From NCBI GenBank assembly GCA_949296855.1, contig CASFRN010000164.1:8127-72126 (forward strand): a stretch of DNA of 64,000 bases. Reading direction: 5' to 3'. Position numbers and translations under genes: made by a program. Position 1 is the stretch's first letter. Every line of letters starts with the position of its first letter. Positions 16,533-33,819 of this stretch are shown piece after piece. The stretch is from an uncultured Bacteroides sp. Lineage in GTDB: Bacteria; Bacteroidota; Bacteroidia; Bacteroidales; Bacteroidaceae. Under the pieces are notes generated by a model, which saw only the letters and a program-made list of their open reading frames with translations, had not been told where the DNA came from and did not search any database.

Positions 16533-17372
16533 ATGGAAACGATAGAACAATTGAAGCGGCAGGTAGAAAGTTTGCAAGAACAATTAAGGCAACAAGAGAA
16601 GATGGCAACGTTGGGATTGCTTACAGCCGGAATCGTGCATGAGATTCGTAATCCGTTGAATTTTGTAATCAATTTCAGTAAGCTTTCCGGTGACTTGATA
16701 AAAGATTTGGGAGAAGACTTGGAGGCAAATGAAGATAATATAGATAATGATGACATGGATGATATTCGTGACATCATGGAAAATTTGAATGAAAACCTTC
16801 AGAAGATAAAGGAACATGGTGACCGGGCTGTTAGTATTATTCAGAATATTCTGCTGTATTCGCGCGGGAAAGAAGATGAGTTTATCCCGACAGATGTATG
16901 TAAGCTGGTAAAAGAATATGTATGGCTTTCTTATCATGCGATGCGTGCTAACCTGAAGAACTTCAATATCACCATTGAGGAGGATTATGAAGCGGCTCTT
17001 CCTTTGCAGCCGGTAGTGCCTCAAGACTTGAGCCGCGCGGTATTGAATGTGATGAACAACGCTTGTTATGCAGTGTGGGAAAAAGCAGGACAGAATATTC
17101 CCGATTACAAACCGACGGTTTCAATAAAAGTAGTTCGCAAGGGCAAGGAACTGCTTATCTCTATTACGGATAACGGCACAGGGATGAGCGATGAAGTAAA
17201 GCAACGTCTGTTCGAAACATTCTTTACCACGAAACCGACCGGACAAGGCACCGGTTTGGGGATGTATATCACTCGCAATATCATCGAAGAAAAACATCAC
17301 GGGCGGATTGAATTCGATTCTGAGGAAGGCAAGTTTACGGCATTTTCACTTATAATACCCATGAAGGAATGA
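16533..17372 (+). CDS. Soluble histidine kinase (HisKA + HATPase_c) with no sensor domain
   Basis: QEKMATLGLLTAGIVHEIRNPLNFV carries the His codon at 16638-16640. Also DNGTGM and GTGLGMY. No TM segment. Confidence 0.9.
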   Translation: METIEQLKRQVESLQEQLRQQEKMATLGLLTAGIVHEIRNPLNFVINFSKLSGDLIKDLGEDLEANEDNIDNDDMDDIRDIMENLNENLQKIKEHGDRAVSIIQNILLYSRGKEDEFIPTDVCKLVKEYVWLSYHAMRANLKNFNITIEEDYEAALPLQPVVPQDLSRAVLNVMNNACYAVWEKAGQNIPDYKPTVSIKVVRKGKELLISITDNGTGMSDEVKQRLFETFFTTKPTGQGTGLGMYITRNIIEEKHHGRIEFDSEEGKFTAFSLIIPMKE

Positions 17373-19777
17373 GAATCAGATTTTTAGTGCTTTTCTGTTT
17401 GTTGTCGTCTGTTCTTTGGGCGCAAGAAGAAAAAGATTTGTTGCAGATATACAGGCAGGCGGAAGAAGAATATGCAATCGGAAGGTTTGATGCTTCCATT
17501 CGTTTGTTGGATCGGAATATGACGAATTTTACCGGAACATTGAAGAGTAGTGCTTGCCGTTTGCTCTCGTTGTGCTGGTTAGGGAAAGACAATCTGCCAG
17601 AAGCAGAGCGGTATGCGTCTTCCCTTTTGAAGGAAGACCCTTATTATAGCACGTCCATCAATGACCCTTTGCGCTTTGTCGACTTGATAGAACGGTTGAA
17701 GCGAGGTGAGGAGGCGACTATTACTACCGCTTCTCAGCAAGCTGAGTCTGTAGAAGAAGCCCCCGTGCCTGTTACGCTGATTACGGAAGAGATGATAAAG
17801 GCATCAGGGGCAAGGACTTTAGCAGACCTGTTGACATTGTACGTGCCAGGTATGTCACTTGTGGAAGGCGATGAACAGAATGTGGCTATGCATGGCGTAT
17901 ATTCTTCATCTCAAGAAAAGATATTGGTGATGTTGAATGGGCATCGGTTGAACAGCCGGACGACCAATTCGGAAGCGTTGGATTACCGGACCAGTTTGGA
18001 TAAAATTAAGCAGATAGAAGTGTTACGCGGTCCGGCTTCTTCGTTGTATGGAAATGTTGCCTTGACGGCAGTAGTGAATATTATCACTAAACAAGGGCGT
18101 GAGGTGGATGGTGTTCAGCTTTCGGCTGGGGTGGGTACAAATCATACATACCGTGCCGATTTCCTGATGGGGAAGAGCGGGCTGGGTATTGATTTCTTGG
18201 CTTGGGCGTCTGTATATTCTTCGCAGGGAGAGAAGCGGGATGTGGGCATTGAAGATGAAGGGTTTTATGGAAAGATACTTCGCCCTGGAAGTATATATAT
18301 TGACGGTTATAATCATCAGCCGGCTTATGATATAGGTTTTATCGCGAAATGGAATGAGTTTAAGTTTATGTTTAATACGCAGTATGCCAAGGAAGTGCCT
18401 TCATATAATACGGTGCTTTTCCAGGGGTTATATTCTTACGACCGTTACCGTGCGATGAACGGGTCTACTCCAGGACACGCGCGGCAGGCTACTCGTTTAG
18501 ATTTGTCGTATGAAAAAAAATGGGGTGAAAAATGGTTTGGAAAGATTGATGCGTATGTAGATTTGGAGACTGTTTCAAATTATGATGTCGGTGGTGACAG
18601 TATCTTACTGGAAGACCGGGAGGATATTCCAATTCGGGAGGATGAAGTGTTGGATGGCGTTGATAAGAGCAATATGCGTACGCGAGGGGTTTATCAGGTT
18701 CAGTTATGGCGGGATTATACTTATGGAGTGGTTGCCCAAAGTGTCTATGATATCCAGCGTGATAAATGGAGCGGAAGTTGGCTGTTGGGAGCACAGGTTG
18801 AAAGTTATACGTTGAAAGATTGCAGTATGTCCGTAGGAGATAACTTTAGCCGGATATTGGTGACTTATTCCAGTCGGAATCGGTTTCTGTTGTTGAACAG
18901 TGAATTTAATTTATCGGCTTTCAGTCAATTGAAGGCGAATATAGGCCGGCATTTTATCTTCAACGGTGGCGTGCGGTATGATTATAAGCATCGCTATAAT
19001 GGGAAAAAGTTGAATGCGTTTTCTCCCCGTCTTTCTTTTATTTACCAGTTCAATCCTAAAATGGGTTTGAAGTTCGGTTATTCTCATTCGTTTGTGGATG
19101 CGCCTTATTTGTATCGCGGGTCCAATACATCGACTTATCCGGGTGGAAATAATTTGGAACCGGAGCAGTTGGATGCAGTTCAGTTGACTTTCAATCATTC
19201 TATACCTTCTTGTAATTTGAAGTATGAGGCGAATGTTTATTATAATCGTTTGTCAGATTTGATTTATTTGGATACTTCTGTTCCGACCTATTACAATTCC
19301 GGTGGTGTGGATGTTATGGGTGTCGAAGGAGTCGTGTCTTATGCGGATGCCCGTTCGCTGGGTTATTTGAATGTATCCTATCAATGGTTGCTGGATAACG
19401 TTAATTATGCATCTACAGGTTCTTACATTAATAATGTCCCTAAGTTCAGGTTAGGGGGAATGTACCGTTATCAATTTTTGAAAACTCCTAAGGCAGGAGA
19501 TGCGTATGTCAGGGTCAATGCCATCGTTTTATCTAAGCAAATATCTCCTATACAGAGGGCTTTCGTTGGAGATAAGGCTATCAATGATCCTGATTATGAA
19601 TTGAGTCCTCGTGCTGTTTTTAATCTTGGCATGGATTATGTTTACAAGCGGGTCGGGATTTCTGCAAATGTTTATAATGTGTTAAACTCAAATTATTATC
19701 AAGGCGGGCTTCGTAAGGCATTTCCTTTGCCCCAGCAGTCAATAAGTTTTTTGGTGAAGCTATCCTATAAGTTTTGA
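17369..19777 (+). CDS. TonB-dependent receptor with an N-terminal helical (TPR-like) extension of about 110 aa
   Basis: Signal peptide MRIRFLVLFCLLSSVLWAQ. Plug motifs APVPVTLIT, LADLL and IEVLRGPASSLYG. C-terminal SYKF. The ATG overlaps the kinase stop as ATGA. Confidence 0.85.
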   Translation: MRIRFLVLFCLLSSVLWAQEEKDLLQIYRQAEEEYAIGRFDASIRLLDRNMTNFTGTLKSSACRLLSLCWLGKDNLPEAERYASSLLKEDPYYSTSINDPLRFVDLIERLKRGEEATITTASQQAESVEEAPVPVTLITEEMIKASGARTLADLLTLYVPGMSLVEGDEQNVAMHGVYSSSQEKILVMLNGHRLNSRTTNSEALDYRTSLDKIKQIEVLRGPASSLYGNVALTAVVNIITKQGREVDGVQLSAGVGTNHTYRADFLMGKSGLGIDFLAWASVYSSQGEKRDVGIEDEGFYGKILRPGSIYIDGYNHQPAYDIGFIAKWNEFKFMFNTQYAKEVPSYNTVLFQGLYSYDRYRAMNGSTPGHARQATRLDLSYEKKWGEKWFGKIDAYVDLETVSNYDVGGDSILLEDREDIPIREDEVLDGVDKSNMRTRGVYQVQLWRDYTYGVVAQSVYDIQRDKWSGSWLLGAQVESYTLKDCSMSVGDNFSRILVTYSSRNRFLLLNSEFNLSAFSQLKANIGRHFIFNGGVRYDYKHRYNGKKLNAFSPRLSFIYQFNPKMGLKFGYSHSFVDAPYLYRGSNTSTYPGGNNLEPEQLDAVQLTFNHSIPSCNLKYEANVYYNRLSDLIYLDTSVPTYYNSGGVDVMGVEGVVSYADARSLGYLNVSYQWLLDNVNYASTGSYINNVPKFRLGGMYRYQFLKTPKAGDAYVRVNAIVLSKQISPIQRAFVGDKAINDPDYELSPRAVFNLGMDYVYKRVGISANVYNVLNSNYYQGGLRKAFPLPQQSISFLVKLSYKF

Positions 19778-19802
19778 TGTTAATTAGAAATTGAAAAATA
19801 CG

Positions 19803-22800
19803 ATGAACAGAATACGGTTGAATGCGATTCAACAGAAATTTTGGATGGATAACTTGTTGAAATATCCGTCTATTGAATACAATGGTACGAATTGTACGTT
19901 TTGGGTGCAAGGGGATTTGGATATTGGGGTGTTAAAAGAAGCCTATAGGTTGATAATGTTGGAATACCCTCCGTTTCATTCGACAATTTTGGTTGAACAG
20001 GGTGTTCCTTATTTTGTTTGGAATGATTCCATAGAGCATTTGCCGTTTCAGTTTATCGAACAGCCGGAAGGCTCTTTGAAAGAAATTGATAGGTTGTTAG
20101 AACAGCTTGTTTATCAACCGTTTGATTTAGATAAGGAATATCCTTGCCGGTTTTATGTGATTCATCATAAGGATGGTTATTTTTTGCTGCATCTGATTCA
20201 TCATATAGCGATAGACGGAGTAAGTATCCAGTCTTTCTTTAGCCGGTTGTCTGCTATTTATAATGATTTGTTGCGTGATGTGTATATGCCTGTAAATCAG
20301 AATAATCAAATGACTCGTTTCAATGCTTGGTTCGATGGCTGTCGTTCACGGCAAAATGAGCAGGATGTGGCATATTGGCAAGATTATGTCCGGCAGGTGT
20401 CTGTAAGTTTGCCGCTTCCTCGTTTGTCATCGGAAAAAGAGACTGAGAGATTGAGAGAACAGGATTTCTATTATGCTTTTGCATTGGGGAAAAAACGTTA
20501 TGAGCAGTATCGTCATTTTTGTAAGGAGTTTCAGACAAGCCCCTTCCGTCTGTTTTCCACTGTATGGGCCTTGACATTATCGAGGGTTATGCGGGTAGAC
20601 GAGTTGCTGTTGGACCATACGGTCAATATGCGCGGCAAAGACTATGCGAACTTGTTCGGCGTGTTTGTAAACAATTTGCCTATAAAATATAAGTTTCAGG
20701 ATGACCGGGCATCTTTTATGGAGCTTGTTGGTTATGCCAATGAAAACCGGCGCAAAGAGCGAGAACACTTGTTTGCATTTTACGGTGATGTTCTAACAAG
20801 GGAGAAAGGGAATCAGGAACAGGTGAACGTATGTATTAATTACCCATTGGATTTTCATGCTTTAGCGTTGGATTTGCACGGGTGTGTTGTGAAAAACTAT
20901 CGTCATGTGAATGTGCTTCCTCCTTTAGACTTGGTTCTGGCGGTAGCAAGTGATGAATCTTTTCGGTGTAATATTCGTTTCAAGCCAGTTATTTCTCGTC
21001 GGTTGGTTCAAGCGTTGGCAGAGACGTTTCAAGAAATCTTGGATCAAGTCTTAGCTTGTCCGGAAATAAAGCTGAAAGATATTCGGTTAGTCTCTAAGGA
21101 TAAGGAAAAGGTTCTTTTAACCCAAGAAGAACGTTCCTTGCGGAATAGGTTGGTTATACCTCAGACTTTCGTTGAACAGTTCCGGCAGACAGTGGTTAAG
21201 TATCCGGATTATAGGGCTGTAGAGTTTGAAGAACACGGTTTTTCTTATGCTGAGTTGGACAGTTTGAGCGAGCGTGTGGCGAAAGCATTGTGCCGGATGG
21301 GGCTGCAAGGCCGGTATATCGGGCTGTCCACGCCTAAGAATCTGTGGATGATTGTCGGTATATTGGGTATATTGAAATCAGGCAATGTGTATGTGCCGGT
21401 AGATGGTGATTATCCGATAGATAGAATCCGCTTTATAATAGACGATTGCCAGCTTTCTGCGGTGTTGCGTACTCAGGATACTTCCGTAGTCTTGGAAGGG
21501 GTTCCTATGTTGTCTATCGAGAGCCTGGTGCAGGAAAAGGATGATAAGAATATGGTTCTGCCCCGGCTTTTGCTTTCAGATAAGGCCTATGTAATCTACA
21601 CTTCTGGAACGACAGGAAAACCGAAAGGCATTCCCATTAGTTATTCTATGTTGGCGCAGACGATAGCGACTTCAGTCAATGTGCTGCACTTGGATGCACA
21701 TTCACGCGAGTTACAGTTTGCCAATATCTGTTTCGATGCGTCTGTGATGGAAATATTTCCAGCGCTTATTGCAGGCGCTACACTGGTCTTGACTCCAGAA
21801 TCGCTCCGTAAAGATCCGGTGGAACTCTTCTCGTTTTTAAGGGAGAAGGACATTACGTCTATGTTTATGCCGCCCGCTTTCTTGGCTGCGTTGCCTCGCC
21901 GGCCTTTGCCTCGGCTTCATACTATTTTTGTAGGTGGAGATTCTTGTACACAAGAAGTAATAGATTATTGGAGCAAAGACCGCCTTTTCGTCAATGTCTA
22001 CGGGCCGACGGAAAATTGTGTAGACGTAACTCATGCGATATTTCATCCTGGTACATATTTGAACGATATAGGTGTGAGTGTACCTGGCTGTACTTGTTAT
22101 GTATTGGACAAATATTTACATTTGATGCCCGACAATACAGTCGGCGAACTTTATATAGGAGGAAGCAAGCTCACGGAAGGTTATTTGAACCGGCCGGAGT
22201 TGAACGCTGAAAAATTTGTGCTTAACCCTTTTGTCGCTGAAGAAGATAAACGGAGAGGCTTGAATACGCGCCTGTATCAGACGGGAGATTTGGTTATGCG
22301 CCGTCCTGACGGACATCTGATTTTTATGGGGCGTTCGGATTTTCAGGTAAAGCTGAACGGCTACCGGATTGAGTTGGGTGATATAGAGTCTAAAATACTC
22401 GAATTTGGCGGTATGGTAAAGAACGCTGTGGTTACGTTGAACGGGCAAGGAGGAGGAAAACACTTGGTCGCTTATGTGCAGACAGATTCAGTGTCTGCTT
22501 TCCCGTTAGATGGCTTGAAGGCTTATTTGAAATTCCGTATGCCGGCATATATGATACCTGCAGTTATAATCCCGTTGCAGGAGTTTCCTTATAATACAAG
22601 CGGGAAAATCGACCGTAAGCGTTTGCCGGATCCGTCTGTTTATGTGGAAGTACGTGAGGTTGATCGGCCTGTTACGGAATGTGAACGTAAGTTGGCTGTG
22701 TTGTGGAGCGGGTTGTTGCCGTCCGTACAGGCTGTCGGTCGTGACGATAGTTTTATCGCTTTAGGCGGTGACTCTATGTCGGTTATCCGTTTGTCTTTTA

Positions 22801-25800
22801 TGATACATGAGCAGTTTGGCTTCCCGATAAAGGCATTTGATATTTATCAGCATATTACGCTGAAGGAGTTGGCAGCTTTTATCGATGCTTATTTACATTC
22901 GGATTTAGGAGAACAAGAAGAGGCGGCTGATTCTGTTGTTTCGGAAGTGGTTCCTTTGACACCGGAACAGTTCAGTTTGTGGCTGGAGTGTATGAAGTCG
23001 GATGAATTGAAGGATGCTTATAATTTACCTTGTTTGTTTGAGTGTCCGTCTGTTTTGCAGCCGGCTGTGTTTGAACAGGCTTTCAACCGTTTGATAAAAG
23101 TGCAGGATAGTTTCCGGATGTGTTTCCCAGCAGATGATAATGGCAATCCTTATATACAGGTGAAAGAATATGCTCCGATGCGGATAGAAATATGCGATGT
23201 CGCGGATGATGAATTGGCGGGATGTTTGAATAGGGATATGCAAGTTTCATTTGATTTGGCGCATGGGCCGTTGTTCCATTGTAGGCTTTATCGCATATCG
23301 GGGAAGAGATATGTTTGTTCCTTGGTGATGCATCATTTGATTTCAGACGGTTGGTCGGCACAGTTGATTCAGTCCGTTCTGGTAAAATCCGTATCAGGTA
23401 TGACGGTTGATTGGGAAGGGCTGTCGGGAAGCTATGTGGAATATGCGTTATTGGCAGACCGTTTTGTGGATACCTCGGCTTATGCTCGCCGTGTGCAGTT
23501 TTGGAAAGGATATTTGCAAGGTGCATCAGAATTGAAATTGCCCAATCTTAAGTCGGAGCGGGAAATCGGGCTTGCCGGAGGTGTGTATACCTGTCTTCTT
23601 CCTAAGGAGCTTTCCGAAAAGGTTCATGCGTTTTGCCGCCTTTATATGTGTACTCCGTTTGTCTTTTATTATGCTGTTTATCTGATGGTATTGGCGCGTG
23701 TGTATAGGCAGACGGATTTTGTGGCCGGTTTCCCTTACGGAGGGCGTGAACATGGACGTTACAAAAATGTTGTCGGCTATTTTGTCCAGACTTTATGTTT
23801 GCGTTATCGCAAGGCATATCAAGAATTGTCCTTTGCCGGCTATTTAGCTGAGATTAAATCGGAATTGCTTGAGGTTGAGCAGAATGCGGTTTCGTTTGAT
23901 AAGATAATGGAGGTGGCGCGGACCCATGCGGCGGAAACGGGTTTACGATTGGTTAGGACGATGTTTACATTCGAGAAAAAATCATTGTATCATGATTGTC
24001 TTATGCAAGAAAAGTCTGTCTTTGATATGGTGTTGAGCGTTTTGTCGGACGATGAAGAGAATGTTTGTTGCCGTATAAGGTATAGGCATTCGTGCTTTGC
24101 AGAAGAGGATATGGCCCGTTTCGCTATGATTTACAAATCTGTTATGTGGGCGGTAACCAGCGATGCTGGTAAAGTTTTGTCGGCTTATTCGCTTGCGTCG
24201 GTTGATTATTGTCAGGCGGTAATCAGAGGAAATCTTTTGTCGGATACCTTAGGTTGTCCGCAGCCTTTTTTGCATCGTTTTGCACAGGCTGTTCGGGATT
24301 TTCCTGACCGGACTGCTCTTGTGTGTGGCGGTAAAAGCATCACTTATCAAGAATTAGACGAGCAGTCCGGCCAGGTTATGTTGGCGATAAAGTCGGCTGG
24401 CATACAGCCGGATTCCAATATCGTTGTTTCTATGCAGGCATCGATAGAATGTATAGTCGCGATGGTCGGTATACTGAAGGCGGGATGTTGTTACGTGCCT
24501 GTGGCTGTAAATTTGCCGGATGAACGTAAGGCTTTTATTCAAAAGGACGCTGCTTGTGTCATGTCGTTTGATGAAACGGATTATCCGTACGGCCATTTGG
24601 CGGAAATTTCTGAGGGGATGAGAAAGGAATGTTCTTTTTCGGGAAATGCGTATGTTATTTATACGTCGGGGACAACCGGACAACCGAAAGGGGTGCCTGT
24701 TACGCATCTGTCTTTGTCGTATTTGATAGAGGCGGAAATTTCCCGAATGAAATTAACGGAGAAAAGTCGAGGCTTGTTGTTCGCGAGCATCAGCTTCGAT
24801 GCTTCTGTGTTTGAGATTTTTCCTATATTGTCTGTTGGCGCAACGTTGGTGATTGCATTGCCGGAAGAAAGAAAAGACCCTGTATTATTGGCTGCGCTGC
24901 TGGAAAGACAGAAAGTTACTTTTGCTACTATCCCTCCTGCTATTCTGCCTGTCTTGCCGCAAAGGCCGTTTCCGTCGTTGGCGGTTATCGTATTAGGAGG
25001 TGAGACAACGGCATTGTCGGCACTTGAGTTTTGGCGGAAAGGCCGTACCGTGATTAATGCTTACGGCCCTACGGAGAACACGGTAGATACGACAATGTGT
25101 GTGGTGGATGATGATTTCGAATACAATGATATCGGCGTCCCGTTGCCCGGAGTTTCTTGCTATGTGTTAGATGAATATCATAACATTGTACCGGATGGTA
25201 TGGTAGGTGAATTATATATCGGTGGGGTACAGTTGACCCGTGGGTATCTGAACCGCCCTGAATTGAATCAGGAGAAATTCATCGAAAATCCATACGTTAC
25301 GCCGGAAGACAAGGCGATGGGAGTCAATCTCCGGCTGTATAAGAGCGGCGATTTGGTGAGACGGCGTCCTGACGGGCATCTGATATTTATGGGACGTGCG
25401 GACAGTCAGGTGAAGCTGCGCGGATTCCGCATAGAGTTAGCCGAGATAGAAACATTGCTTCAGCAATGCGAGGGAGTACGTAATGCATTGGTGGAGGTGC
25501 GGAAAACGGATACGCAGGAAGAACTGGCTGCATTCGTGCAGTTCGACAAACAGGCTTCGCCGGATGTGTCCGGTTTGCAAGCCGTCTTGCGCGGCAAGTT
25601 GCCTCCTTATATGATTCCTTCCAAATGGGCGGCGGTGGATGAGTTTCCGCTTACGGTAAACGGAAAGATAGACCGTAGGCGGTTGCCCGAACCCGATGTC
25701 GTGGTGAAGCGTGAGGTCGTCGGAGCGGGTACGGAAAACGAGGAAACATTGCTGGCAATGGCTGGGGAAGTTATCGGTTCGGAAGGCATCGGAGTGGAAA

Positions 25801-26657
25801 CCGATTTGCTGGATGAGGCTGGGATGACGTCCATGCAGGTGATGGAGTTTGTCGGGAAAGTGATAACGGAAACAGGTTTGCGCATCACGGTCTCTTCGGT
25901 ATACAAAAACCGTACGATACGTAAGTTGTTGTGTGATACGGAAGGAAGGCCTTACTTTTGGTTCGATGGTTTCGACGGACGGAAGCCGGTATTGGTGTTC
26001 ATAACGGGGTTTCCTGCCGTGTCGCCTTTCTATGATGCGCTGTTGCGCTTCTTTGCGCGTGATTATTCGGTATTTGTATTTGACTCTTATTACGATTTCT
26101 TTGTCGGGAAAGACGCTGTGTCTCTGGAAGTGCTGTTGCATTCGTATGAAGAGGTTCTGACGGAGGTTTTGGGTGATAAGCCTGTAGCGATGCTGACCGG
26201 TTATTGTACCGGTGCGGAATTGGCTATTGTTTTTGCTGCTTATATGCGGAAGAAGCATCCGGAGAAAGCTTTGTATCCTATCTTAAATATGGAAGGGGTT
26301 TACCGGCGCCAGGAAACAGACGAGATACCGGAAACGATTACGGAAGAGCCGTTAAGGGGACGTATTTGTATTACGAACGAACTTTATAAAGGTTTTCCTT
26401 TATTGGAGTATACTGGGCCGATTGTGCATGTGATGGCGGGAAGACCGTCTAAGATGATTTATTGGGAAAAAGGTGAGGAGACCGATGGATTGATTTTGGA
26501 ACAGATGCGTCAGGCATCAGAAGCGAATCATGAGGATTGGCAACGGCATTACCCCAACGCTCCTTACTATGAGTTGGATTGTGACCACTGGACGTTCTTT
26601 GAAGAAAAGAATCTAAGGGTACTCCGTGAGATTATTCGAAAACATTGGAATATATAA
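19803..26657 (+). CDS. Bimodular non-ribosomal peptide synthetase, C-A-T-C-A-T-TE
   Basis: C1 HHIAIDG (about 20200-20220). A1 YTSGTTGKPKG (about 21597-21630). T1 LGGDSMS (about 22761-22781). C2 HHLISDG (about 23330-23350). A2 YTSGTTGQPKG (about 24660-24692). T2 AGMTSM (about 25818-25838). TE GYCTGA (26199-26216) and C-terminal DHW. The ATG at 19803 is preferred over the TTG at 19791. Confidence 0.95.
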   Translation: MNRIRLNAIQQKFWMDNLLKYPSIEYNGTNCTFWVQGDLDIGVLKEAYRLIMLEYPPFHSTILVEQGVPYFVWNDSIEHLPFQFIEQPEGSLKEIDRLLEQLVYQPFDLDKEYPCRFYVIHHKDGYFLLHLIHHIAIDGVSIQSFFSRLSAIYNDLLRDVYMPVNQNNQMTRFNAWFDGCRSRQNEQDVAYWQDYVRQVSVSLPLPRLSSEKETERLREQDFYYAFALGKKRYEQYRHFCKEFQTSPFRLFSTVWALTLSRVMRVDELLLDHTVNMRGKDYANLFGVFVNNLPIKYKFQDDRASFMELVGYANENRRKEREHLFAFYGDVLTREKGNQEQVNVCINYPLDFHALALDLHGCVVKNYRHVNVLPPLDLVLAVASDESFRCNIRFKPVISRRLVQALAETFQEILDQVLACPEIKLKDIRLVSKDKEKVLLTQEERSLRNRLVIPQTFVEQFRQTVVKYPDYRAVEFEEHGFSYAELDSLSERVAKALCRMGLQGRYIGLSTPKNLWMIVGILGILKSGNVYVPVDGDYPIDRIRFIIDDCQLSAVLRTQDTSVVLEGVPMLSIESLVQEKDDKNMVLPRLLLSDKAYVIYTSGTTGKPKGIPISYSMLAQTIATSVNVLHLDAHSRELQFANICFDASVMEIFPALIAGATLVLTPESLRKDPVELFSFLREKDITSMFMPPAFLAALPRRPLPRLHTIFVGGDSCTQEVIDYWSKDRLFVNVYGPTENCVDVTHAIFHPGTYLNDIGVSVPGCTCYVLDKYLHLMPDNTVGELYIGGSKLTEGYLNRPELNAEKFVLNPFVAEEDKRRGLNTRLYQTGDLVMRRPDGHLIFMGRSDFQVKLNGYRIELGDIESKILEFGGMVKNAVVTLNGQGGGKHLVAYVQTDSVSAFPLDGLKAYLKFRMPAYMIPAVIIPLQEFPYNTSGKIDRKRLPDPSVYVEVREVDRPVTECERKLAVLWSGLLPSVQAVGRDDSFIALGGDSMSVIRLSFMIHEQFGFPIKAFDIYQHITLKELAAFIDAYLHSDLGEQEEAADSVVSEVVPLTPEQFSLWLECMKSDELKDAYNLPCLFECPSVLQPAVFEQAFNRLIKVQDSFRMCFPADDNGNPYIQVKEYAPMRIEICDVADDELAGCLNRDMQVSFDLAHGPLFHCRLYRISGKRYVCSLVMHHLISDGWSAQLIQSVLVKSVSGMTVDWEGLSGSYVEYALLADRFVDTSAYARRVQFWKGYLQGASELKLPNLKSEREIGLAGGVYTCLLPKELSEKVHAFCRLYMCTPFVFYYAVYLMVLARVYRQTDFVAGFPYGGREHGRYKNVVGYFVQTLCLRYRKAYQELSFAGYLAEIKSELLEVEQNAVSFDKIMEVARTHAAETGLRLVRTMFTFEKKSLYHDCLMQEKSVFDMVLSVLSDDEENVCCRIRYRHSCFAEEDMARFAMIYKSVMWAVTSDAGKVLSAYSLASVDYCQAVIRGNLLSDTLGCPQPFLHRFAQAVRDFPDRTALVCGGKSITYQELDEQSGQVMLAIKSAGIQPDSNIVVSMQASIECIVAMVGILKAGCCYVPVAVNLPDERKAFIQKDAACVMSFDETDYPYGHLAEISEGMRKECSFSGNAYVIYTSGTTGQPKGVPVTHLSLSYLIEAEISRMKLTEKSRGLLFASISFDASVFEIFPILSVGATLVIALPEERKDPVLLAALLERQKVTFATIPPAILPVLPQRPFPSLAVIVLGGETTALSALEFWRKGRTVINAYGPTENTVDTTMCVVDDDFEYNDIGVPLPGVSCYVLDEYHNIVPDGMVGELYIGGVQLTRGYLNRPELNQEKFIENPYVTPEDKAMGVNLRLYKSGDLVRRRPDGHLIFMGRADSQVKLRGFRIELAEIETLLQQCEGVRNALVEVRKTDTQEELAAFVQFDKQASPDVSGLQAVLRGKLPPYMIPSKWAAVDEFPLTVNGKIDRRRLPEPDVVVKREVVGAGTENEETLLAMAGEVIGSEGIGVETDLLDEAGMTSMQVMEFVGKVITETGLRITVSSVYKNRTIRKLLCDTEGRPYFWFDGFDGRKPVLVFITGFPAVSPFYDALLRFFARDYSVFVFDSYYDFFVGKDAVSLEVLLHSYEEVLTEVLGDKPVAMLTGYCTGAELAIVFAAYMRKKHPEKALYPILNMEGVYRRQETDEIPETITEEPLRGRICITNELYKGFPLLEYTGPIVHVMAGRPSKMIYWEKGEETDGLILEQMRQASEANHEDWQRHYPNAPYYELDCDHWTFFEEKNLRVLREIIRKHWNI

Positions 26658-26674: not shown

Positions 26675-27220
26675 ATGAAGCAAAACGGAACGATAACCGA
26701 TATCCTGACGCGGGTTACTGTCAGGAGATTTACAGACGAGCCGGTGGACAACGAAGCGTTGCGCCTGCTGTTGCAGGCGGCTATGGCTGCGCCCAGTTCG
26801 ATGAACCTGCAGCCGTGGCATTTCATTGTGGTGCGTGACGAAACGGTGAAGCAATGTTTGAAAGACAGCTTGCCATACGCCAAGATGATAAATAAAGGTT
26901 GTACGGGTATTGTGGTGTGTGGCGATATTTCTCTCTATGAACATATCAATAAAGTGGATAAGGAAGACAACACGCTTTATTGGGTGCAGGATTGTTCCGC
27001 CGCTTCCGAGAATCTGCTGTTGGCAGCCCATGCCATCGGTTTGGGAGCCGTGTGGACGGGGATTTATCCGCTGGAAAGCCGTGTGAAGAAGCTACGTGAA
27101 TTGTTGGCGATACCTGACCATATTGTGCCGTTGAACTTGATTTTAATCGGTCATCCGGAGAGTGTTCCTCTTCCAAAAGAGAAGTGGGACGAAAAGAAAT
27201 TGCATTACGATAAATATTAA
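26675..27220 (+). CDS. Nitroreductase-family FMN oxidoreductase
   Basis: 181 aa. RVTVRRFTDEPV, APSSMNLQPW and ENLLLAAHAIGLG are typical of the nitroreductase fold. Confidence 0.85.
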   Translation: MKQNGTITDILTRVTVRRFTDEPVDNEALRLLLQAAMAAPSSMNLQPWHFIVVRDETVKQCLKDSLPYAKMINKGCTGIVVCGDISLYEHINKVDKEDNTLYWVQDCSAASENLLLAAHAIGLGAVWTGIYPLESRVKKLRELLAIPDHIVPLNLILIGHPESVPLPKEKWDEKKLHYDKY

Positions 27221-27298
27221 AATGAATGTCCGCATCTGTCGATAAAGATATAGAATTTTATAGGCGGATTGCGGGCGTTTTTGTTAAAAATGGAGTAT

Positions 27299-27691
27299 AT
27301 GAAATTACATCATGTGGGTTATACCGTTGCCGATATCCGTGTTTCTGCAAAGCGGTTTGCGTTGTTGGGATATCAGCCTGGAGAAGTGCTTTACGATGAA
27401 GGTTTGAGTGTAGAGCTTTGCTATTTGACGAAGGAAGGAAGTGCCGTCATCGAACTGGTGCATCAGTTGCAAGCCGGTTCGCTGGAGGCGGAATTGCTCC
27501 GTGCGGGAGGTGTCATGCCTTATCATTTGGGTTATGAAGCGGAGGCTTTCGATGAGGCTTGTTCGGAATTAGACGCACAAGGGTATAAACGCTTGTTTAA
27601 TCCGGTTCCTGTTGGAGTTTTGGATGGGAAGCTCATTTGCTACTTTCATCATCCGGATATTGGCTACATTGAGTTGATAGAAAAAGCTTAG
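27299..27691 (+). CDS. VOC (glyoxalase / methylmalonyl-CoA-epimerase-like) family protein
   Basis: MKLHHVGYTVADI start and a C-terminal ...IGYIELIE. The track start at 27269 is TTG, and an alternative ATG lies at 27290. Confidence 0.75.
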   Translation: MKLHHVGYTVADIRVSAKRFALLGYQPGEVLYDEGLSVELCYLTKEGSAVIELVHQLQAGSLEAELLRAGGVMPYHLGYEAEAFDEACSELDAQGYKRLFNPVPVGVLDGKLICYFHHPDIGYIELIEKA

Positions 27692-28397: not shown

Positions 28398-28973
28398 ATG
28401 AAACGTTTGCTGACTATATTGCTGTGTTGCATAGGTATGTCGGTTTCTGCACAGAATTGGATGTTAAAAACCAATTTGCTTCACGATTTAACCACTACAA
28501 TAAATTTTGGTGTTGAAGCACGTTTGTCGCAGAAATGGACTTTGGATGTGTCTGCCAACTGGAATCCTTGGGACTTTTCGGATAACAAGAAATGGAAGCA
28601 GCTTTCTTTCCAGCCCGAAGCCCGCTATTGGCTTTGCGAGGCGTTCAACGGTCATTTTCTCGGTGCACACCTCTTGGGCGGCATTTACAACATGGGTAAT
28701 TGGAATACCGATTTCAAATTGTTCGGTACTGATTTCGGCGAGCTTCAGGATTACCGTTTCGAAGGCTGGATGTTAGGAGTAGGCGTGGCTTACGGCTATC
28801 AATGGCTGCTCTCGAAGCATTGGAGCGTGGAGGCGGAAATCGGAATCGGTTATGTCTACAGCCGGTATGATAAGTACGAGTGTCCTTATTGTGGTGATTT
28901 GTTAGAAGAAAACAAGCCGCACAATTACTTTGGGCCTACCAAGGTGGCGGTCAATCTGATTTACGTGTTTTAA
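28398..28973 (+). CDS. DUF3575-type outer-membrane beta-barrel protein
   Basis: Signal peptide, then NWMLKTNLLHDLTTTINFGVEARLSQKWTLDVSANWNPW and a C-terminal NLIYVF. These genes typically open Bacteroidales fimbrial loci. Confidence 0.8.
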   Translation: MKRLLTILLCCIGMSVSAQNWMLKTNLLHDLTTTINFGVEARLSQKWTLDVSANWNPWDFSDNKKWKQLSFQPEARYWLCEAFNGHFLGAHLLGGIYNMGNWNTDFKLFGTDFGELQDYRFEGWMLGVGVAYGYQWLLSKHWSVEAEIGIGYVYSRYDKYECPYCGDLLEENKPHNYFGPTKVAVNLIYVF

Positions 28974-28994
28974 AGTGCTGAAGGAGGAAAAATC

Positions 28995-30404
28995 ATGAAA
29001 ACAATTTGCTTATATAGTCTGTTGGCTTTGCTTCCGTTTGTATCGGTAGCGGCTGATGAGGCAAAACGTTTGCCGGGTGGTGCCGAGGTGGGCGGTGTGG
29101 AAATCCGTAAGCAGCGCGACAGTGTGCTGATACGCATGAGCTTGGACTTGAACGGAATGGAAGTAGGGCGTAACCGCTCTATTGTAATAGCTCCCTTGTT
29201 TTATGCGGAAGGGGAAGGAACGTGGCTTCCTGCCATCGAGGTTATGGGGCGCACCCGCTATCTCTATTATCAACGTAACGAAGAATCGCTTTATGCCAGT
29301 AATCCTTATGCCGTTATAAAACGGGACAAGGAGGCGGAGCAACAAGTCGATTATCAGGTAGCCGTTCCTTATCGCAAGTGGATGGATCGCGCGACATTGG
29401 TGGTGGCGGAAGATACGTGCCAGTGTGGTGACGTGACGAAAGGAAACAGCGTACCCTTGAAGCAAGCCGATTTGGTTTTCCGTCCGAAGTTGTCCTACAT
29501 TACTCCGCAGGCAGAAACCCGTAAGACACGTGCTTTAAGCGGTGAAGCCTATTTGGATTTCCCTGTAAACAAGACGGTTATTTACCCCGATTACCGGAGG
29601 AATACGGCGGAATTGGCTAAGATACGCGCTACGGTTGATACCGTCCGTGCCGATAAGGATTACAGCATAACGCAGATACGCCTGAAAGGTTATGCTTCGC
29701 CCGAAGGAGGTTATGCGTGGAACGTACGTTTGTCTGAAGGCCGTACGGAAGCATTGCGTAATTATTTGATTGAAGAATACGGCTTTAAGGCGGATTTGTT
29801 CCGTGCCGAGCCAGGTGCGGAAAACTGGGAAGGCTTGCGCCGGTATGTAGCGGCAAGCAGCCTGACGGATAAAGACGGCATCCTTGCCTTGATAGACAGC
29901 GATGAGAGCAACCTCGACCGGAAAGAGCACCGCATCCGCGACGAGCATCCGGCATCGTATCAGAAGCTATTGAAAGACTGCTATCCGGCTTTACGCCGCA
30001 CGGATTACACCGTGGACTATGTAATCCGCGGTTTCGATGTAGAGGAAGCGAAGGAAGTAATAAAGGTCCGTCCGCAAAACCTGAGCCTGCAGGAGATGTT
30101 TGCCGTGGCTCAGATATACGAGGCGGGAAGTGAGGATTTCAATCATGTATTTGATGTAGCGGTCCGTATGTACCCCGACAATCTGGTAGCGAACCTTAAT
30201 GCAGCCAATGCGCTTTTGGAACAAGGTGCGGCAGAACAGGCAATGAAGTTCTTAGAGAAAGCGGGCGGTAGTCCTCAAGCTGACAACGCCCGAGGCGTAG
30301 CCTTGATTCTATTAGAGCAGTACGATGAGGCAGCCGTTTGTTTGCAACGTGCCGCGGATGCAGGCATCAGCGAAGCTAAAGCGAACTTGGAATACATCAA
30401 GTAA
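28995..30404 (+). CDS. DUF3868-like N-terminal domain + OmpA-like peptidoglycan-binding domain + C-terminal TPR
   Basis: Signal peptide, the OmpA-like motif GYASPEGGYAWNVRLSEGRTEALRNYL, and C-terminal TPR-like helices. Confidence 0.75.
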   Translation: MKTICLYSLLALLPFVSVAADEAKRLPGGAEVGGVEIRKQRDSVLIRMSLDLNGMEVGRNRSIVIAPLFYAEGEGTWLPAIEVMGRTRYLYYQRNEESLYASNPYAVIKRDKEAEQQVDYQVAVPYRKWMDRATLVVAEDTCQCGDVTKGNSVPLKQADLVFRPKLSYITPQAETRKTRALSGEAYLDFPVNKTVIYPDYRRNTAELAKIRATVDTVRADKDYSITQIRLKGYASPEGGYAWNVRLSEGRTEALRNYLIEEYGFKADLFRAEPGAENWEGLRRYVAASSLTDKDGILALIDSDESNLDRKEHRIRDEHPASYQKLLKDCYPALRRTDYTVDYVIRGFDVEEAKEVIKVRPQNLSLQEMFAVAQIYEAGSEDFNHVFDVAVRMYPDNLVANLNAANALLEQGAAEQAMKFLEKAGGSPQADNARGVALILLEQYDEAAVCLQRAADAGISEAKANLEYIK

Positions 30405-30474
30405 AGATTCGGATTGACAGGGAAATAAAAAGACTCTGTGTCTTTGTGTCTCTGTATTCGATAGTTAAAAATAG

Positions 30475-30503
30475 TGCTCTTTGACATAGTGGAAATAAGG
30501 GAA
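30475..30503. repeat. Left arm of the inverted repeat flanking the toxin-antitoxin cassette
   Basis: TGCTCTTTGACATAGTGGAAATAAGGGAA. Its partner at 31405-31434 differs by one mismatch and one 1-nt indel. Confidence 0.85.
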
Positions 30504-30510
30504 TAATTTG

Positions 30511-30518
30511 TAACTTTG
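30511..30518 (+). promoter_or_regulatory. Candidate -7 box (TAACTTTG) driving the TA cassette
   Basis: Matches TAnnTTTG and lies 40 nt upstream of the ATG at 30558, just inside the left inverted-repeat arm. Confidence 0.5.
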
Positions 30519-30557
30519 CGTACAGATTAGAAACGTAAGAATGAGGAGGATAAAGCC

Positions 30558-30833
30558 ATGACCGAAAATTCAGCATTAGCCATGCAGCGCGAAGCGTTGA
30601 TAAACGAGTTGCGCAACGTTGATGACATCGATGTAATCCAAAAGACACAACGCTACCTTAACCGGGCTTTGACTGCGGTAAAGAAAGCGGCAAGCAAGGC
30701 AAAGGAAGAGGAAGAATACATTAGTAAGGAAGAGATAATGGACAGTTTGCGTGAATCGCTGACTGAAATGTACACTGCCCAACGGGACGGAATCAAACGT
30801 AAAACCTTGCAGGAAGTAATCGATGAATTATAG
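30558..30833 (+). CDS. Putative antitoxin (helical, acidic; partner of the downstream RelE/ParE-like toxin)
   Basis: 91 aa. Overlaps the toxin start by 11 nt. The call rests on position and size; the family was not recognised directly. Confidence 0.6.
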   Translation: MTENSALAMQREALINELRNVDDIDVIQKTQRYLNRALTAVKKAASKAKEEEEYISKEEIMDSLRESLTEMYTAQRDGIKRKTLQEVIDEL

Positions 30834-31191
30834 TATAATACCTGAGCCAAGGTTCTTGCGTGAGATGAAACGTTTGGCTAAAAAGTATAAGTCGATGAAG
30901 CAAGATTTACAGCGACTTAATGATGAGCTATTGGCAGACCCTACTTGCGGAGTAGATTTGGGTGAAGGTTTTCGTAAAGTACGTATGGCTATTGCCAGTA
31001 AAAACCGTGGTAAAAGCCATGGGGCAAGAGTCATTACTTATCTATATGCCATAAATGAAGTTGAAGGAAATATTAGTTTGTTGTCCATATACGACAAACA
31101 AGAAAAAGACAACATTTCCGAAGCGGAATTACGACAACTGAAAGCCGAAATCAAAGCCAAAGTGGGTATTACAAATAATCCGGTAGATTAG
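30823..31191 (+). CDS. RelE/ParE-superfamily toxin (Bacteroidales addiction-module toxin type)
   Basis: The pattern F...KRLAKKYKS...DL..L...L..P..G..LG.G..K.R......GKS.GARVI.Y...........LLSIYDK is typical of RelE-like toxins. Confidence 0.75.
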   Translation: MNYSIIPEPRFLREMKRLAKKYKSMKQDLQRLNDELLADPTCGVDLGEGFRKVRMAIASKNRGKSHGARVITYLYAINEVEGNISLLSIYDKQEKDNISEAELRQLKAEIKAKVGITNNPVD

Positions 31192-31200
31192 GTATTAACG

Positions 31201-31365
31201 ATGAAAAAGAGGATTAAACATACATCTTACAAGAAGCAAAAGTACGCCCCCAAGCGTACCTTAGCCGATGTATTGGATGAAAACTACATCAGTAAGAAAG
31301 ATTTAGAACGAAGATACCTCAGAGCCTTTACTCATATCAAGCCAAAAAAGAAGGCTGGAAACTGA
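31201..31365 (+). CDS. Unlisted 54-aa lysine-rich ORF inside the cassette
   Basis: Hand translation: MKKRIKHTSYKKQKYAPKRTLADVLDENYISKKDLERRYLRAFTHIKPKKKAGN, ending at the TGA at 31363-31365. Starts 9 nt after the toxin stop. Below the 60-aa cutoff of the ORF track. Confidence 0.4.
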   Translation: MKKRIKHTSYKKQKYAPKRTLADVLDENYISKKDLERRYLRAFTHIKPKKKAGN

Positions 31366-31404
31366 AATCAGCAAGAGAACTAATCAATGAACTATAGGAT
31401 TCTT

Positions 31405-31434
31405 TTCCCTTATTTCCACTAAGTCACAAGAGCA
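31405..31434. repeat. Right arm of the inverted repeat flanking the toxin-antitoxin cassette
   Basis: TTCCCTTATTTCCACTAAGTCACAAGAGCA. Its reverse complement matches 30475-30503. Confidence 0.85.
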
Positions 31435-31454
31435 TATAAAGCGAAAGGATATTA

Positions 31455-31468
31455 TTAACTTTTAATTT
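31455..31468 (+). promoter_or_regulatory. TTAACTTTTAATTT element exactly 10 nt upstream of the major pilin ATG
   Basis: An identical 14-mer lies at 33796-33809, also 10 nt upstream of the ATG at 33820. A near copy is at 33783-33795. Confidence 0.5.
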
Positions 31469-31478
31469 ATATGCGATT

Positions 31479-33653
31479 ATGAGAAAATTTAAGTTTTTTG
31501 CTTTAGCGTTTGCGGCACTCAGCTTCGCTGCGTGCTCAGACGATGCGATTGAAGGGCAAAGCGGAAGCGGCGGCTCTGCTGGCGAAGGTACTCCGGCTTA
31601 CTTGACGATTTCTTTTACTGCCAATAGTGGTAGCAGTAGCCGTTCTACTGCGGACGATGCGAATAATTGGGGTGATAAAGATGGAGATGCAGAAGATAGC
31701 GGACATCATAATGCGGGTACAACAGATGAAAATGCTGTGAAGACGGCATTGATTGTGGTAAATCCTGCTGACGGAGGAAACACGGCGTTTGCTAAATTGT
31801 ATACCGCTTCAACAACAGCTTCAGAAGACGGGGAGTTTGAAGTGATTGATGATGCTTCTAAACTTTATAAAAATACAACTCCGATTGAAGTGGCTGTAGG
31901 AAAGTATAATGTTTTAGTTGTTATCAATCCGGTTAGTGAATTGGTTCCATCAGGTGCTCAAGAAGGTATAACGAATGCAAATGCAGTGCAAGACTTATAT
32001 AATAAAATTGTCAATGAAAGTTATCTTCCTAATGAAGCAACTTATAAAAGTCTTGTCGATGCTACAATTGGAGAAGATGGCATGATGATGGCTAATAAAA
32101 ATTGGAATGATGGCTCCGTTGGGTCAGCTTCTGATTGTTCTGTTGTCTTGACACCGGATAATAATGCTCCTGAAAAAGCGGCAACGGTTACTGTTGATGT
32201 AGAGCGTGTTATGTCTAAGATTACTTTCCGTGATACGCAGATTGACGGGATGAAGGATAAAAATATTTATCCGGTTACTGTACATACAGGTGTAGGCACA
32301 GCGGTAACTGTACGTGGCGCTATTTTGGATGAAACGACAACAGATGTGGAAGATGATTATCGGATTGTTGTTTTAAATAAAGCAGAGGATATTGCAGAGC
32401 ATGAAGTTTATGCTTTGTATGAAAAAGCATCAGAAGATGCTGAGGCTGTTTTAACAGGTGTATATGCAGCTACTACAGAAACGAAGAAAACAGAAGATGG
32501 TAATGAATATACAGTTTATACAAAATTGACGGCTGTTACAGATGCTTCCGACTATGTAGCTGGGACAAACTATGTAGCAAATACAAGTGCAGAAGACTAT
32601 GGCCTTACTTTGGTTTTGGCTGAGATGGGTGATCCTACTTATTGGTATGTAAGGTTGGAAGGTTATGCGTTGGTTAATCTGTCAAAAGATGTACACTATG
32701 TGCGTCATACAATTGACAATGCCAATGTGATAACACCTCTTGGAACATTAAATGGTTCTAACTATTTATATACGACAAATTGGATAGCAAAGAATACGGC
32801 TGAATTTAGCACTAATGATAAGGGTGATGTAATATTCAGTAATTGTGACCCCAATGATTGGTTCTATAATACGTTGGCTGCCGTATCTGATGATAGTGAT
32901 AAGTTGACATTTAGCGGCAATACGATTATTAACAGTGATTTTTATCAAGCATTCCCTACGGGTGCATATCCAGAAGATGGTGCCGTTGAGGGTGATGGTA
33001 TCATTTATGATAAAGGAACATCGACTGGTAGTGGTCAGCATACAAGCGCTAATGGTAATTTGGATAATATTGGTCATTTTTTGGCATATTGCTTCGAAAA
33101 CTCCACTGATCTTAATCATCAGATGCATGGCATAAGCACAGGTATTTCATTCGTTGCGAGAATGTACACAGACCAAGAATGTACAAAACCTGTAGAAAGA
33201 TTGTATCAATATGCCGGTCAAAAGTTTACTTCATTAAAGAGTATTCAAGAAGCTTTTGGAGCAAGCCGAATGAGTTCAGCGTTTAACAGCTTGGTTGATA
33301 AAGAATCAACTATAACGGATGTAGAAGACATGAAAGACGAATTGGAGAAGTTGGCTGCGAATAAAGAAAACGGCGGTGAAAACATTACAATCTATAATGA
33401 TAATATCTGCTATTACTACACTACAGAAATTAAGCATTTCGATAATGGTGATAATGCGGTATTAGGCAATATGGAGTTTGCGATTATGCGTAATAACATT
33501 TATTCTTTATCGGTAAGTGGCATTAATGAAATCGGTGATGCGATTGTGGATCCGACTCCGAATATTCCGGATGAAACAGAAAGTCGTGCAGCTCTGACCG
33601 TACAAGTACGTATCCTCCCATGGATTGTCCGCTACAACGACATCGAGTTCTAA
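31479..33653 (+). CDS. Type V pilus major subunit candidate (Mfa1/FimA-superfamily lipoprotein), unusually long
   Basis: Lipobox FAACS. The N-terminal strand AYLTISFTANSGSSSR-S has an Arg in the position of the gingipain-type maturation site. C-terminal donor-strand-like LPWIVRYNDIEF. Confidence 0.7.
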   Translation: MRKFKFFALAFAALSFAACSDDAIEGQSGSGGSAGEGTPAYLTISFTANSGSSSRSTADDANNWGDKDGDAEDSGHHNAGTTDENAVKTALIVVNPADGGNTAFAKLYTASTTASEDGEFEVIDDASKLYKNTTPIEVAVGKYNVLVVINPVSELVPSGAQEGITNANAVQDLYNKIVNESYLPNEATYKSLVDATIGEDGMMMANKNWNDGSVGSASDCSVVLTPDNNAPEKAATVTVDVERVMSKITFRDTQIDGMKDKNIYPVTVHTGVGTAVTVRGAILDETTTDVEDDYRIVVLNKAEDIAEHEVYALYEKASEDAEAVLTGVYAATTETKKTEDGNEYTVYTKLTAVTDASDYVAGTNYVANTSAEDYGLTLVLAEMGDPTYWYVRLEGYALVNLSKDVHYVRHTIDNANVITPLGTLNGSNYLYTTNWIAKNTAEFSTNDKGDVIFSNCDPNDWFYNTLAAVSDDSDKLTFSGNTIINSDFYQAFPTGAYPEDGAVEGDGIIYDKGTSTGSGQHTSANGNLDNIGHFLAYCFENSTDLNHQMHGISTGISFVARMYTDQECTKPVERLYQYAGQKFTSLKSIQEAFGASRMSSAFNSLVDKESTITDVEDMKDELEKLAANKENGGENITIYNDNICYYYTTEIKHFDNGDNAVLGNMEFAIMRNNIYSLSVSGINEIGDAIVDPTPNIPDETESRAALTVQVRILPWIVRYNDIEF

Positions 33654-33672
33654 TAAGTTGAAATGAATAACC

Positions 33673-33755: not shown

Positions 33756-33795
33756 TATAACGATGTACCCTAACTACACTATCAACTTTTAATTT

Positions 33796-33809: not shown

Positions 33810-33819
33810 TTAATTGAAA

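Follow-up and report, generated by a model that had tools for sequence, protein, structure and literature searches.

A conserved cysteine thioesterase domain at the end of a Bacteroides nonribosomal peptide synthetase represents a previously unannotated, Bacteroidales-centred clade

A stretch of 64,000 nucleotides from an uncultured Bacteroides sp. (GenBank assembly GCA_949296855.1, contig CASFRN010000164.1, positions 8,127 to 72,126 of the forward strand), the whole of which is referred to here as the window, contains a gene for a nonribosomal peptide synthetase (NRPS) that ends in a domain without a Pfam assignment. We found that this terminal domain is a real, conserved Cys-His-Glu thioesterase (TE) belonging to a previously unannotated clade centred on the Bacteroidales, and that the cysteine at its nucleophile position is the mark of a coherent clade, not an isolated oddity. 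We hold with moderate confidence that the domain releases its product by way of an acyl-S-Cys intermediate, which a weak nucleophile, probably a nitrogen, would then resolve.

The NRPS gene (19791..26657, + strand; window positions are used throughout) comprises 2288 codons, and the open reading frame (ORF) list, the translation and Pfam together gave the domain order C-A-T-C-A-T-TE, in which C, A and T denote condensation, adenylation and carrier domains. Pfam recognised Condensation, AMP-binding and PP-binding twice each, together with AMP-binding_C, after which about 240 residues were left without an assignment. These residues form a 239-aa TE domain (aa 2050-2288; 25938..26654, + strand) that directly follows the PP-binding domain T2 and closes the ORF. 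Within it, window positions 26199-26216, GGTTATTGTACCGGTGCG (GGT TAT TGT ACC GGT GCG), encode G-Y-C-T-G-A in frame with the NRPS ORF, and the surrounding peptide is VAMLTGYCTGAELAIVF. The nucleophile elbow G-Y-C-T-G lies at 26199..26213 (+ strand), with Cys2139 encoded by TGT at 26205-26207, and a regular-expression scan found the pattern G-x-[S/C]-x-G only at this one place in the whole 2288-aa protein. The initial annotation had reported a cysteine in GYCTG of the terminal domain, and this reading was exact, with sequence, frame and surrounding peptide in agreement.

Searched as a single sequence, the 239-aa domain gave no match in NCBIfam and none in the PDB (phmmer), and the Pfam profile PF00975 aligned with it only around the elbow, over residues 60-106 (E 0.16; 12.6 bits against a threshold of 26.4). 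The same profile was matched by 9 of 15 family members taken singly (best E 3.5e-8), so that the TE homology of the window domain is supported transitively. A first AlphaFold model, made from three sequences, had a predicted local distance difference test score (pLDDT) of 72; a second model (AF2), based on a 15-sequence family alignment, showed an alpha/beta hydrolase with a pLDDT of 88.4 and a predicted template modelling score (pTM) of 0.90. When both models were compared with the PDB by Foldseek, the best matches were TEs of polyketide synthases (PKS) and NRPSs, with TM scores of about 0.55-0.65; the TEs matched included those of juvenimicin, fluvirucin (FluC), pikromycin, tautomycetin and fengycin, as well as YbtT, Vlm2, NocB, SulM (rank 21) and AB3403 (rank 35, TMq 0.59), and ObiF lay outside the top 50. 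A first profile search of the PDB (A3) was dominated by columns from the C-terminus of the A domain and from the carrier domain, and was replaced by a search with a TE-only alignment (A4), which matched the oocydin TE (7r0x, E 1.6e-5), SrfTEII (2k2q, E 1.5e-4) and the Dieckmann cyclase NcmC (6e6t, E 0.0019). In these alignments the Cys column fell on the nucleophile of the oocydin TE (GYSMGG), of SrfTEII (GHSMGG) and of NcmC (GFCAGS), the Glu/Asp column on NcmC Asp116 and the His column on the His of SrfTEII. Residues 2050-2288 are a strongly diverged type I TE with Cys2139 at the nucleophile position. That the terminal domain is a TE of alpha/beta-hydrolase fold, as had been proposed from the sequence alone, was borne out by the AF2 fold and by the TE matches of Foldseek and the family profile.

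In the AF2 model (domain numbering), Cys90 is placed between strand 83-89 and helix 91-106, that is, at the nucleophile elbow, as originally suggested, and it aligns with the nucleophiles of known TEs. Glu119 follows strand 115-118 and His217 follows strand 210-213, the last of the model, and residues 120-161 form a lid of about 40 residues with one helix. In the numbering of the NRPS, the predicted triad acid is Glu2168 of the segment ILNMEG (GAA, 26292..26294, + strand), at the canonical site after beta6 that is called position I and is also that of EntF, right after the strand, and the predicted catalytic histidine is His2266 of the segment ELDCDHW (CAC, 26586..26588, + strand). The model and the alignments together thus predict a triad Cys2139-His2266-Glu2168, in which Cys2139 is presumed to act as the catalytic nucleophile. 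The histidine in ELDCDHWTFF had been named beforehand as a catalytic candidate, and the column of His2266 contains His in 91 of the 92 relatives that cover the site. A second cysteine, Cys2264 (26580-26582), stands two residues ahead of this histidine (D-C-D-H); its column contains Cys in 18 of 96 relatives, mostly those of the subclade to which the window sequence belongs. Cys2264 could lie near Cys2139, in which case redox control would be possible.

A word-index search of 5.8 billion proteins found only three relatives, so that an exhaustive profile search was needed for the others; the window NRPS itself was not returned by the word-index search. Exhaustive HMMER profile searching of 1.84 billion representative proteins gave 112 matches at E <= 1e-3, of which 80 reached E <= 1e-10. 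In full-length relatives the matching domain was nearly always C-terminal, and the lengths of these proteins fit A-T-TE (about 810 aa), C-A-T-TE (about 1250), A-T-C-A-T-TE (about 1800) and C-A-T-C-A-T-TE (about 2290). The nearest representative at the 50% cluster level, P0004, shares only 59% identity with the window NRPS, indicating that public data hold little from the source organism. Conservation was counted in an alignment of 96 domain sequences from the HMMER search: the nucleophile column had Cys in 84 and Ser in 12, and the acid column had Asp in 61, Glu in 23, Gly in 7 and Asn in 5, so that 84 of the 96 carry Asp or Glu. The residue after the Cys was mostly hydrophobic (Leu 29, Ile 19, Phe 14) and was Asn once. 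The subclade of the window sequence has the motif ILNMEG, with Glu as the acid; Glu2168 lies 29 residues after the Cys and was aligned with the Asp at +27 of the relatives through a two-residue loop insertion.

Cysteine was also kept in all five close orthologues that were read (P0001/L002, P0002/L001, L003, L004), and the conservation proposed as a check on the initial annotation was found at both levels. The Cys codon is neither a sequencing accident nor a chance substitution. The clade comprises about 100 clusters (50% identity) that are essentially unannotated, with cysteine as the rule and Cys-His-Glu/Asp, the acid being at position I, as the active-site layout. Its members are almost only the C-termini of short NRPSs of one or two modules, and those with a taxon label are from gut Bacteroides or Phocaeicola. 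Named members are found in Bacteroides fragilis and B. hominis (809 aa, A-T-TE, in a cluster of 619 members), in Phocaeicola salanitronis (1340 aa) and in metagenome-assembled genomes of Candidatus Bacteroides pullicola and Candidatus Phocaeicola faecigallinarum. P0001 had been considered as a free-standing Cys hydrolase of 238 aa, and this was rejected as a gene-calling artefact: just upstream of it a run of N interrupts the NRPS in L002 (1-1499), and NRPS A and T domains stand in frame before the gap. P0003 was dropped as a chimeric fragment.

A neighbour-joining tree showed Cys throughout the family and one coherent Ser subclade (P0048, P0058, P0062, P0065, P0076, P0077); in addition, a few peripheral sequences with Ser and Asp resembled ordinary TEs with GHSxGG. 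Members of the Ser subclade read GHSIGSELG, have Gly at position I and carry a conserved Glu right after strand beta7 (LE[N/Q/T]xPS). The nucleophile and the position of the acid change together in this subclade, which is good evidence from within the family that the columns in question are those of functional, catalytic residues.

The specificity codes of the A domains, which were read from a motif-anchored alignment, are DAMFFGVVDK for A1 and DAFTVGAVDK for A2. Both have Asp at code position 331, as A domains that select basic or amide side chains typically do. The TE-proximal code of the closest two-module relatives is nearly invariant, DATTIGAVDK (P0004, P0007, P0008, P0010, P0015, L004), and other subclades have DAENTGSVDK, DAECVGTVDK or aromatic-type codes such as DASTVAAVCK. 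A search of the literature for the code strings gave no matches. DATTIGAVDK and DAFTVGAVDK resemble an Arg code of microcystin synthetase, DVWTIGAVDK, a likeness that we treat as an unconfirmed lead only. If an Arg-type code holds, the side-chain nitrogen would be a candidate for the poor nucleophile in release.

How the product leaves the enzyme may be pictured as follows. A dipeptidyl thioester, possibly N-acylated, on Ser2014 of T2 would be passed to Cys2139 by an energy-neutral transthioesterification, and the resulting acyl-S-enzyme, being more reactive than an oxoester toward amines and other poor nucleophiles, would be resolved by a weak and most likely nitrogen nucleophile. Instead of plain hydrolysis, this step could be aminolysis or a cyclisation within the molecule. 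To our knowledge, cysteine TEs are rare, and each of those characterised carries out a release that serine cannot, giving a beta-lactone, a monobactam, an N-acyl-indole macrocycle or a tetramate. In BulbE-TE, a Cys to Ser change abolished cyclisation and increased hydrolysis, and its authors explained the Cys by the greater reactivity of thioesters in aminolysis (PMC11536411); ObiF and SulM (PMC6668435, PMC11298585) are likewise reported to depend on their Cys, as is BpdE, a cyclase of the NcmC type (PMC10956176). The more general idea of the initial annotation, that the release chemistry may be unusual, is plausible; the Cys of the window domain would then reflect a demanding, non-hydrolytic release.

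Plain hydrolysis is the main rival to this reading. Release would then occur by ordinary hydrolysis or a trivial cyclisation and would yield a linear (acyl)dipeptide acid, and the Cys would be an idiosyncrasy of the lineage that makes no particular difference to the chemistry. AB3403 has the same combination of Cys and position-I acid and no unusual chemistry is known for it (PMC11298585), so that this layout by itself would not predict such chemistry. In addition, a Ser-bearing relative, P0058/L009, lies in the same gene cassette (described below) as the Cys-bearing ones, so that Cys is not obligatory for the function of the cassette. Further points also weigh against release through Cys by a weak nucleophile: all members of the clade are uncharacterised as to product, substrate and activity; the window domain alone falls below the threshold of the Pfam Thioesterase profile and has no PDB sequence match; and the predicted triad is derived from secondary-structure position and alignment. 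The use of Glu for Asp as the triad acid is, moreover, unusual, and we know of no citable characterised TE that validates Glu. Against hydrolytic release, 84 of 96 representatives have retained Cys although they are only about 20-50% identical; as Ser is one nucleotide away, this implies selection for Cys itself. Exchanging Cys for Ser has also altered the outcome in every Cys-TE tested (PMC11536411, PMC6668435, PMC10956176). We therefore regard hydrolysis as a serious possibility, but one that is less probable than acyl-S-Cys release to a weak nucleophile.

The remaining explanations appear weaker. An iterative or oligomerising TE, in which Cys2139 would park a (di)peptidyl unit for attack by the amine of a second unit, could give a dimer or a diketopiperazine-type product, on which the nitroreductase encoded next to the NRPS might act like a cyclodipeptide oxidase. 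Consistent with this, thioesters favour aminolysis (PMC11536411), the bare A-T-TE relatives in B. fragilis could go beyond a free amino acid only by iteration or with an external acceptor, and the nitroreductase matches the albonoursin synthase AlbA (8uc3, a cyclodipeptide oxidase) over its full length at 2.5e-20. It is, however, far closer to generic nitroreductases of Bacteroides (the putative enzymes 3m5k and 3kwk, about 1e-43) and is missing from most loci, and the N-terminal C domain is intact, which points to an N-terminus that is acylated or extended and would prevent ring closure to a diketopiperazine; we consider iteration unlikely. Closure of a strained beta-lactone or beta-lactam on the C-terminal residue, the inference drawn in the initial annotation, could be suggested by a Cys nucleophile at the end of a short NRPS and by the documented precedent of ObiF (beta-lactone) and SulM (monobactam); the catalytic Asp of these two enzymes lies on the loop after beta7 (position II), in a RifR-like manner (PMC6668435, PMC11298585). 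In the window domain the predicted acid occupies position I, beta7 is not followed by a conserved acid, the Gln-Cys-Asn motif of SulM is absent and neither SulM nor ObiF is closer in fold than other TEs. The A2 code also seems unlike those for Thr, Ser and diaminopropionate. The link to strained rings is thus weakened, a four-membered ring being unlikely on the active-site layout, and we rate an ObiF/SulM-like TE as quite unlikely.

A Dieckmann cyclase like NcmC and TrdC, making a tetramic acid from a beta-ketoacyl-aminoacyl thioester, could be suggested by the presence of NcmC among the best PDB profile matches, by its GFCAG motif with Asp at +27 and by its documented Cys-Asp-His triad (PMC10956176). 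No PKS module or source of a beta-ketoacyl group was found within the window, and the window domain is fused to the NRPS and has a one-helix lid of about 40 residues in place of a four-helix bundle (PMC10956176), which makes such a cyclase very improbable. Finally, that Pfam, NCBIfam and PDB sequence searches missed the domain might point to a degenerate, inactive domain or to a Cys codon produced by misassembly; this explanation is effectively refuted by the conservation of Cys, His and acid in about 100 clusters from independent assemblies, and the 2288-codon ORF is intact and the fold was predicted with confidence.

Genetically tractable B. fragilis carries a minimal A-T-TE version of the enzyme, for example EKA80810.1 / WP_223129444.1, in the same cassette of receptor and kinase genes, and two questions are therefore directly testable, namely what chemistry is bought by the Cys and whether commensals sense and import an NRPS-made signal. 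If the product proves to be a hydrolysed dipeptide, the finding would shrink to a gain in annotation for a TE subfamily missed by current profile libraries.

This cassette is a more novel lead than the TE itself. Directly upstream of the NRPS gene is a gene for a TonB-dependent receptor of 802 aa (17369..19777; Plug and TonB_dep_Rec_b-barrel), and it is preceded by genes for a HisKA/HATPase kinase of 279 aa (16533-17372), a Reg_prop/Y_Y_Y histidine kinase of 1002 aa (13491-16499), a WD40-like propeller (11855-13483), a DJ-1/PfpI protein (11208-11771), an anti-sigma-type kinase with HATPase_c_2 (10811-11224), a STAS protein (10490-10801) and a response-regulator-SpoIIE (PP2C) phosphatase (4950-6116), all on the + strand. 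NCBIfam had no specific names for the receptor, the kinases, the WD40 protein or the Glyoxalase/VOC-family (VOC) protein encoded downstream. The receptor gene directly precedes the NRPS gene in L005-L011. The kinases and propeller stand before the receptor-NRPS pair, usually with STAS, HATPase_c_2 and response-regulator-SpoIIE genes, wherever a Pfam-annotated locus extends far enough upstream (L005-L010); in L011 the contig covers only a Plug-domain receptor upstream. In L003 and L004, ORFs of matching size, judged by size alone, occupy the cassette positions. This order was kept with NRPSs of one or two modules (A-T-TE to C-A-T-C-A-T-TE) and with TEs of the Cys or the Ser type. A GlcNAc-2-epimerase-like gene and an isoamylase gene (CBM48 and alpha-amylase) lie at 6147-10455, between the response-regulator-SpoIIE and STAS genes; these two are adjacent in the B. 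fragilis locus L006, so that the pair looks like an insertion into the cassette, and L005 also has an amylase gene ahead of STAS.

It is possible, although we hold this only tentatively, that the NRPS makes a small, diffusible peptide within a self-contained make-import-sense cassette conserved across the Bacteroidales, including B. fragilis. The product would be re-imported through the upstream TonB-dependent receptor, and two kinases, the periplasmic beta-propeller (Reg_prop/Y_Y_Y) one and that of 279 aa, would sense it; the signal might then be passed on by way of the response-regulator-PP2C phosphatase, the STAS protein and an anti-sigma-kinase partner switch. If true, gut commensals would possess an undescribed system of the autoinducer type (or one based on a signalling chelator), in which the signal would owe its identity to the chemically distinctive release carried out by the conserved Cys-TE. 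Within the window, no further NRPS, PKS or acyl-activating genes were found, and the literature searched contained no description of a Bacteroides NRPS-TonB cassette or of a Bacteroides Cys-TE.

The other domains of the NRPS are likewise encoded on the + strand. The start codon is TTG, the first ATG being codon 5 at 19803. C1 (about aa 8-449; 19812..21137) was covered by Pfam Condensation in two stretches and contains HHIAIDG at aa 137; its boundaries were inferred from the offset between module 1 and module 2, and its best PDB sequence matches, all weak, were the C domain of TycB, the C domain of PsoA and a domain of surfactin synthetase. A1 (about aa 476-938; 21216..22604) was covered by AMP-binding, likewise in two stretches, and T1 (aa 967-1031; 22689..22883) was the best PP-binding stretch, with its phosphopantetheine residue, Ser995, in GGDSMS (codon 22773-22775). 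In the second module, C2 (aa 1051-1470; 22941..24200) was the best Condensation stretch and contains HHLISDG at aa 1181, so that HHxxxDG is intact in both C domains; A2 (aa 1497-1959; 24279..25667) comprises AMP-binding (1497-1820) and AMP-binding_C (1885-1959); and T2 (about aa 1986-2050; 25746..25940) was the second PP-binding stretch, with Ser2014 encoded at 25830-25832. Around this phosphopantetheine serine, T2 reads G-M-T-S (25821-25832) in place of the usual G-G-(D/H)-S. Orthologues have GMNS or GMTS, so that the motif characterises the TE-proximal carrier domain throughout the clade.

Downstream of the NRPS gene are genes for the nitroreductase-fold flavoprotein (181 aa; 26675..27220, + strand; Pfam Nitroreductase) and the VOC protein (140 aa; 27269..27691, + strand; Pfam Glyoxalase_4). 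The initial annotation had found the adjacent nitroreductase to be of interest; the adjacency is real, but the synteny does not extend outside one subclade, as the loci with a nitroreductase-VOC pair behind the NRPS are those of the window, L001/L004 and L005 alone. The two proteins were considered as obligatory partners of the Cys-TE and rejected as such, being absent from L003, L006-L009 and L011. Farther along, the window contains an Mfa/FimA-type fimbrial locus (28398-38359; DUF3575, OmpA-like, Fimbrillin_C, Mfa2 and DUF4906/FimA), a gene for a RelE-like toxin (30823-31191), a caspase-family (Peptidase_C14) gene followed by one for a WG-repeat protein (39533-44281), and two identical tRNA-Gln(CTG) genes, 121 bp apart (62446-62638).

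Compared with known TEs, the window domain resembles the canonical Ser-Asp-His type I enzymes (EntF, SrfA-C, Fen, Vlm2 and PKS TEs) in fold, in triad order and in its place after the last carrier domain, but it has Cys for Ser and, at the predicted acid, Glu for Asp. The initial annotation had named the obafluorin and sulfazecin synthetases as Cys-TE examples, and these are indeed documented (PMC6668435, PMC11298585); the list was, however, incomplete, as it lacked AB3403, BulbE-TE and NcmC/TrdC (PMC11298585, PMC11536411, PMC10956176). With ObiF and SulM the window domain shares a GxCxG nucleophile motif (here GYCTG) in the terminal TE of an NRPS. Those enzymes have Gly at position I and Asp after beta7, whereas the window domain has Glu2168 at position I and, after beta7, the stretch MAGRPS, which contains no acid. 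The authors of the ObiF and SulM studies tied the relocation to position II to the closure of four-membered rings; for ObiF, an acid in the EntF-like position is reported to hinder loading sterically, and moving it back to position I failed to recover activity (PMC6668435, PMC11298585). SulM has, in addition, a Gln-Cys-Asn motif (PMC11298585), where the window domain has Tyr-Cys-Thr, and the positively charged pocket proposed for SulM was not found in the window domain. Of the structural features put forward for TEs that form lactams and lactones, two are lacking in the window domain. The Ser subclade, which pairs Ser with an acid after beta7, shows the reverse of the ObiF/SulM combination of Cys with position II.

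The other Cys enzymes are closer in layout. AB3403 (ABBFA_003403, C-A-T-TE, Acinetobacter baumannii, PDB 4ZXH) is a short NRPS with a Cys TE and a position-I Asp, and is uncharacterised (PMC11298585). It differs from the window enzyme in its proteobacterial host, in having no known link to a TonB receptor/kinase cassette and in the marginal similarity of its TE sequence: the family profile matched it at E 0.11 with the TE only, and with the carrier domain included the aligned stretch extended across the elbow. NcmC, TrdC and BpdE are free-standing Dieckmann cyclases with Cys89, Asp116 and His, the acid being at position I (PMC10956176). NcmC has GFCAG with Asp 27 residues after the Cys, both residues pairing with the columns of the window family, but these cyclases have a four-helix bundle and act on PKS-derived beta-ketoacyl-aminoacyl chains, whereas the window domain is fused, has a one-helix lid and is accompanied by no PKS. 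BulbE-TE, from the bulbiferamide NRPS of Microbulbifer, with Cys961, Asp988 and His1097 and the acid after beta6, performs macrolactamisation through an indole nitrogen (PMC11536411). By its published description it is, like the window domain, the C-terminal TE of an NRPS with a Cys, an acid after beta6 about 27 residues farther on and a His after the last strand; it differs in having Asp at the acid site, where the window domain has Glu, and in cyclising a ureido-hexapeptide through the indole nitrogen of Trp, whereas the window enzyme would handle at most a dipeptide. As judged from alignment and model, the predicted active-site layout of the window domain is that of AB3403, BulbE-TE and NcmC, with the acid at position I and Glu in the place of Asp.

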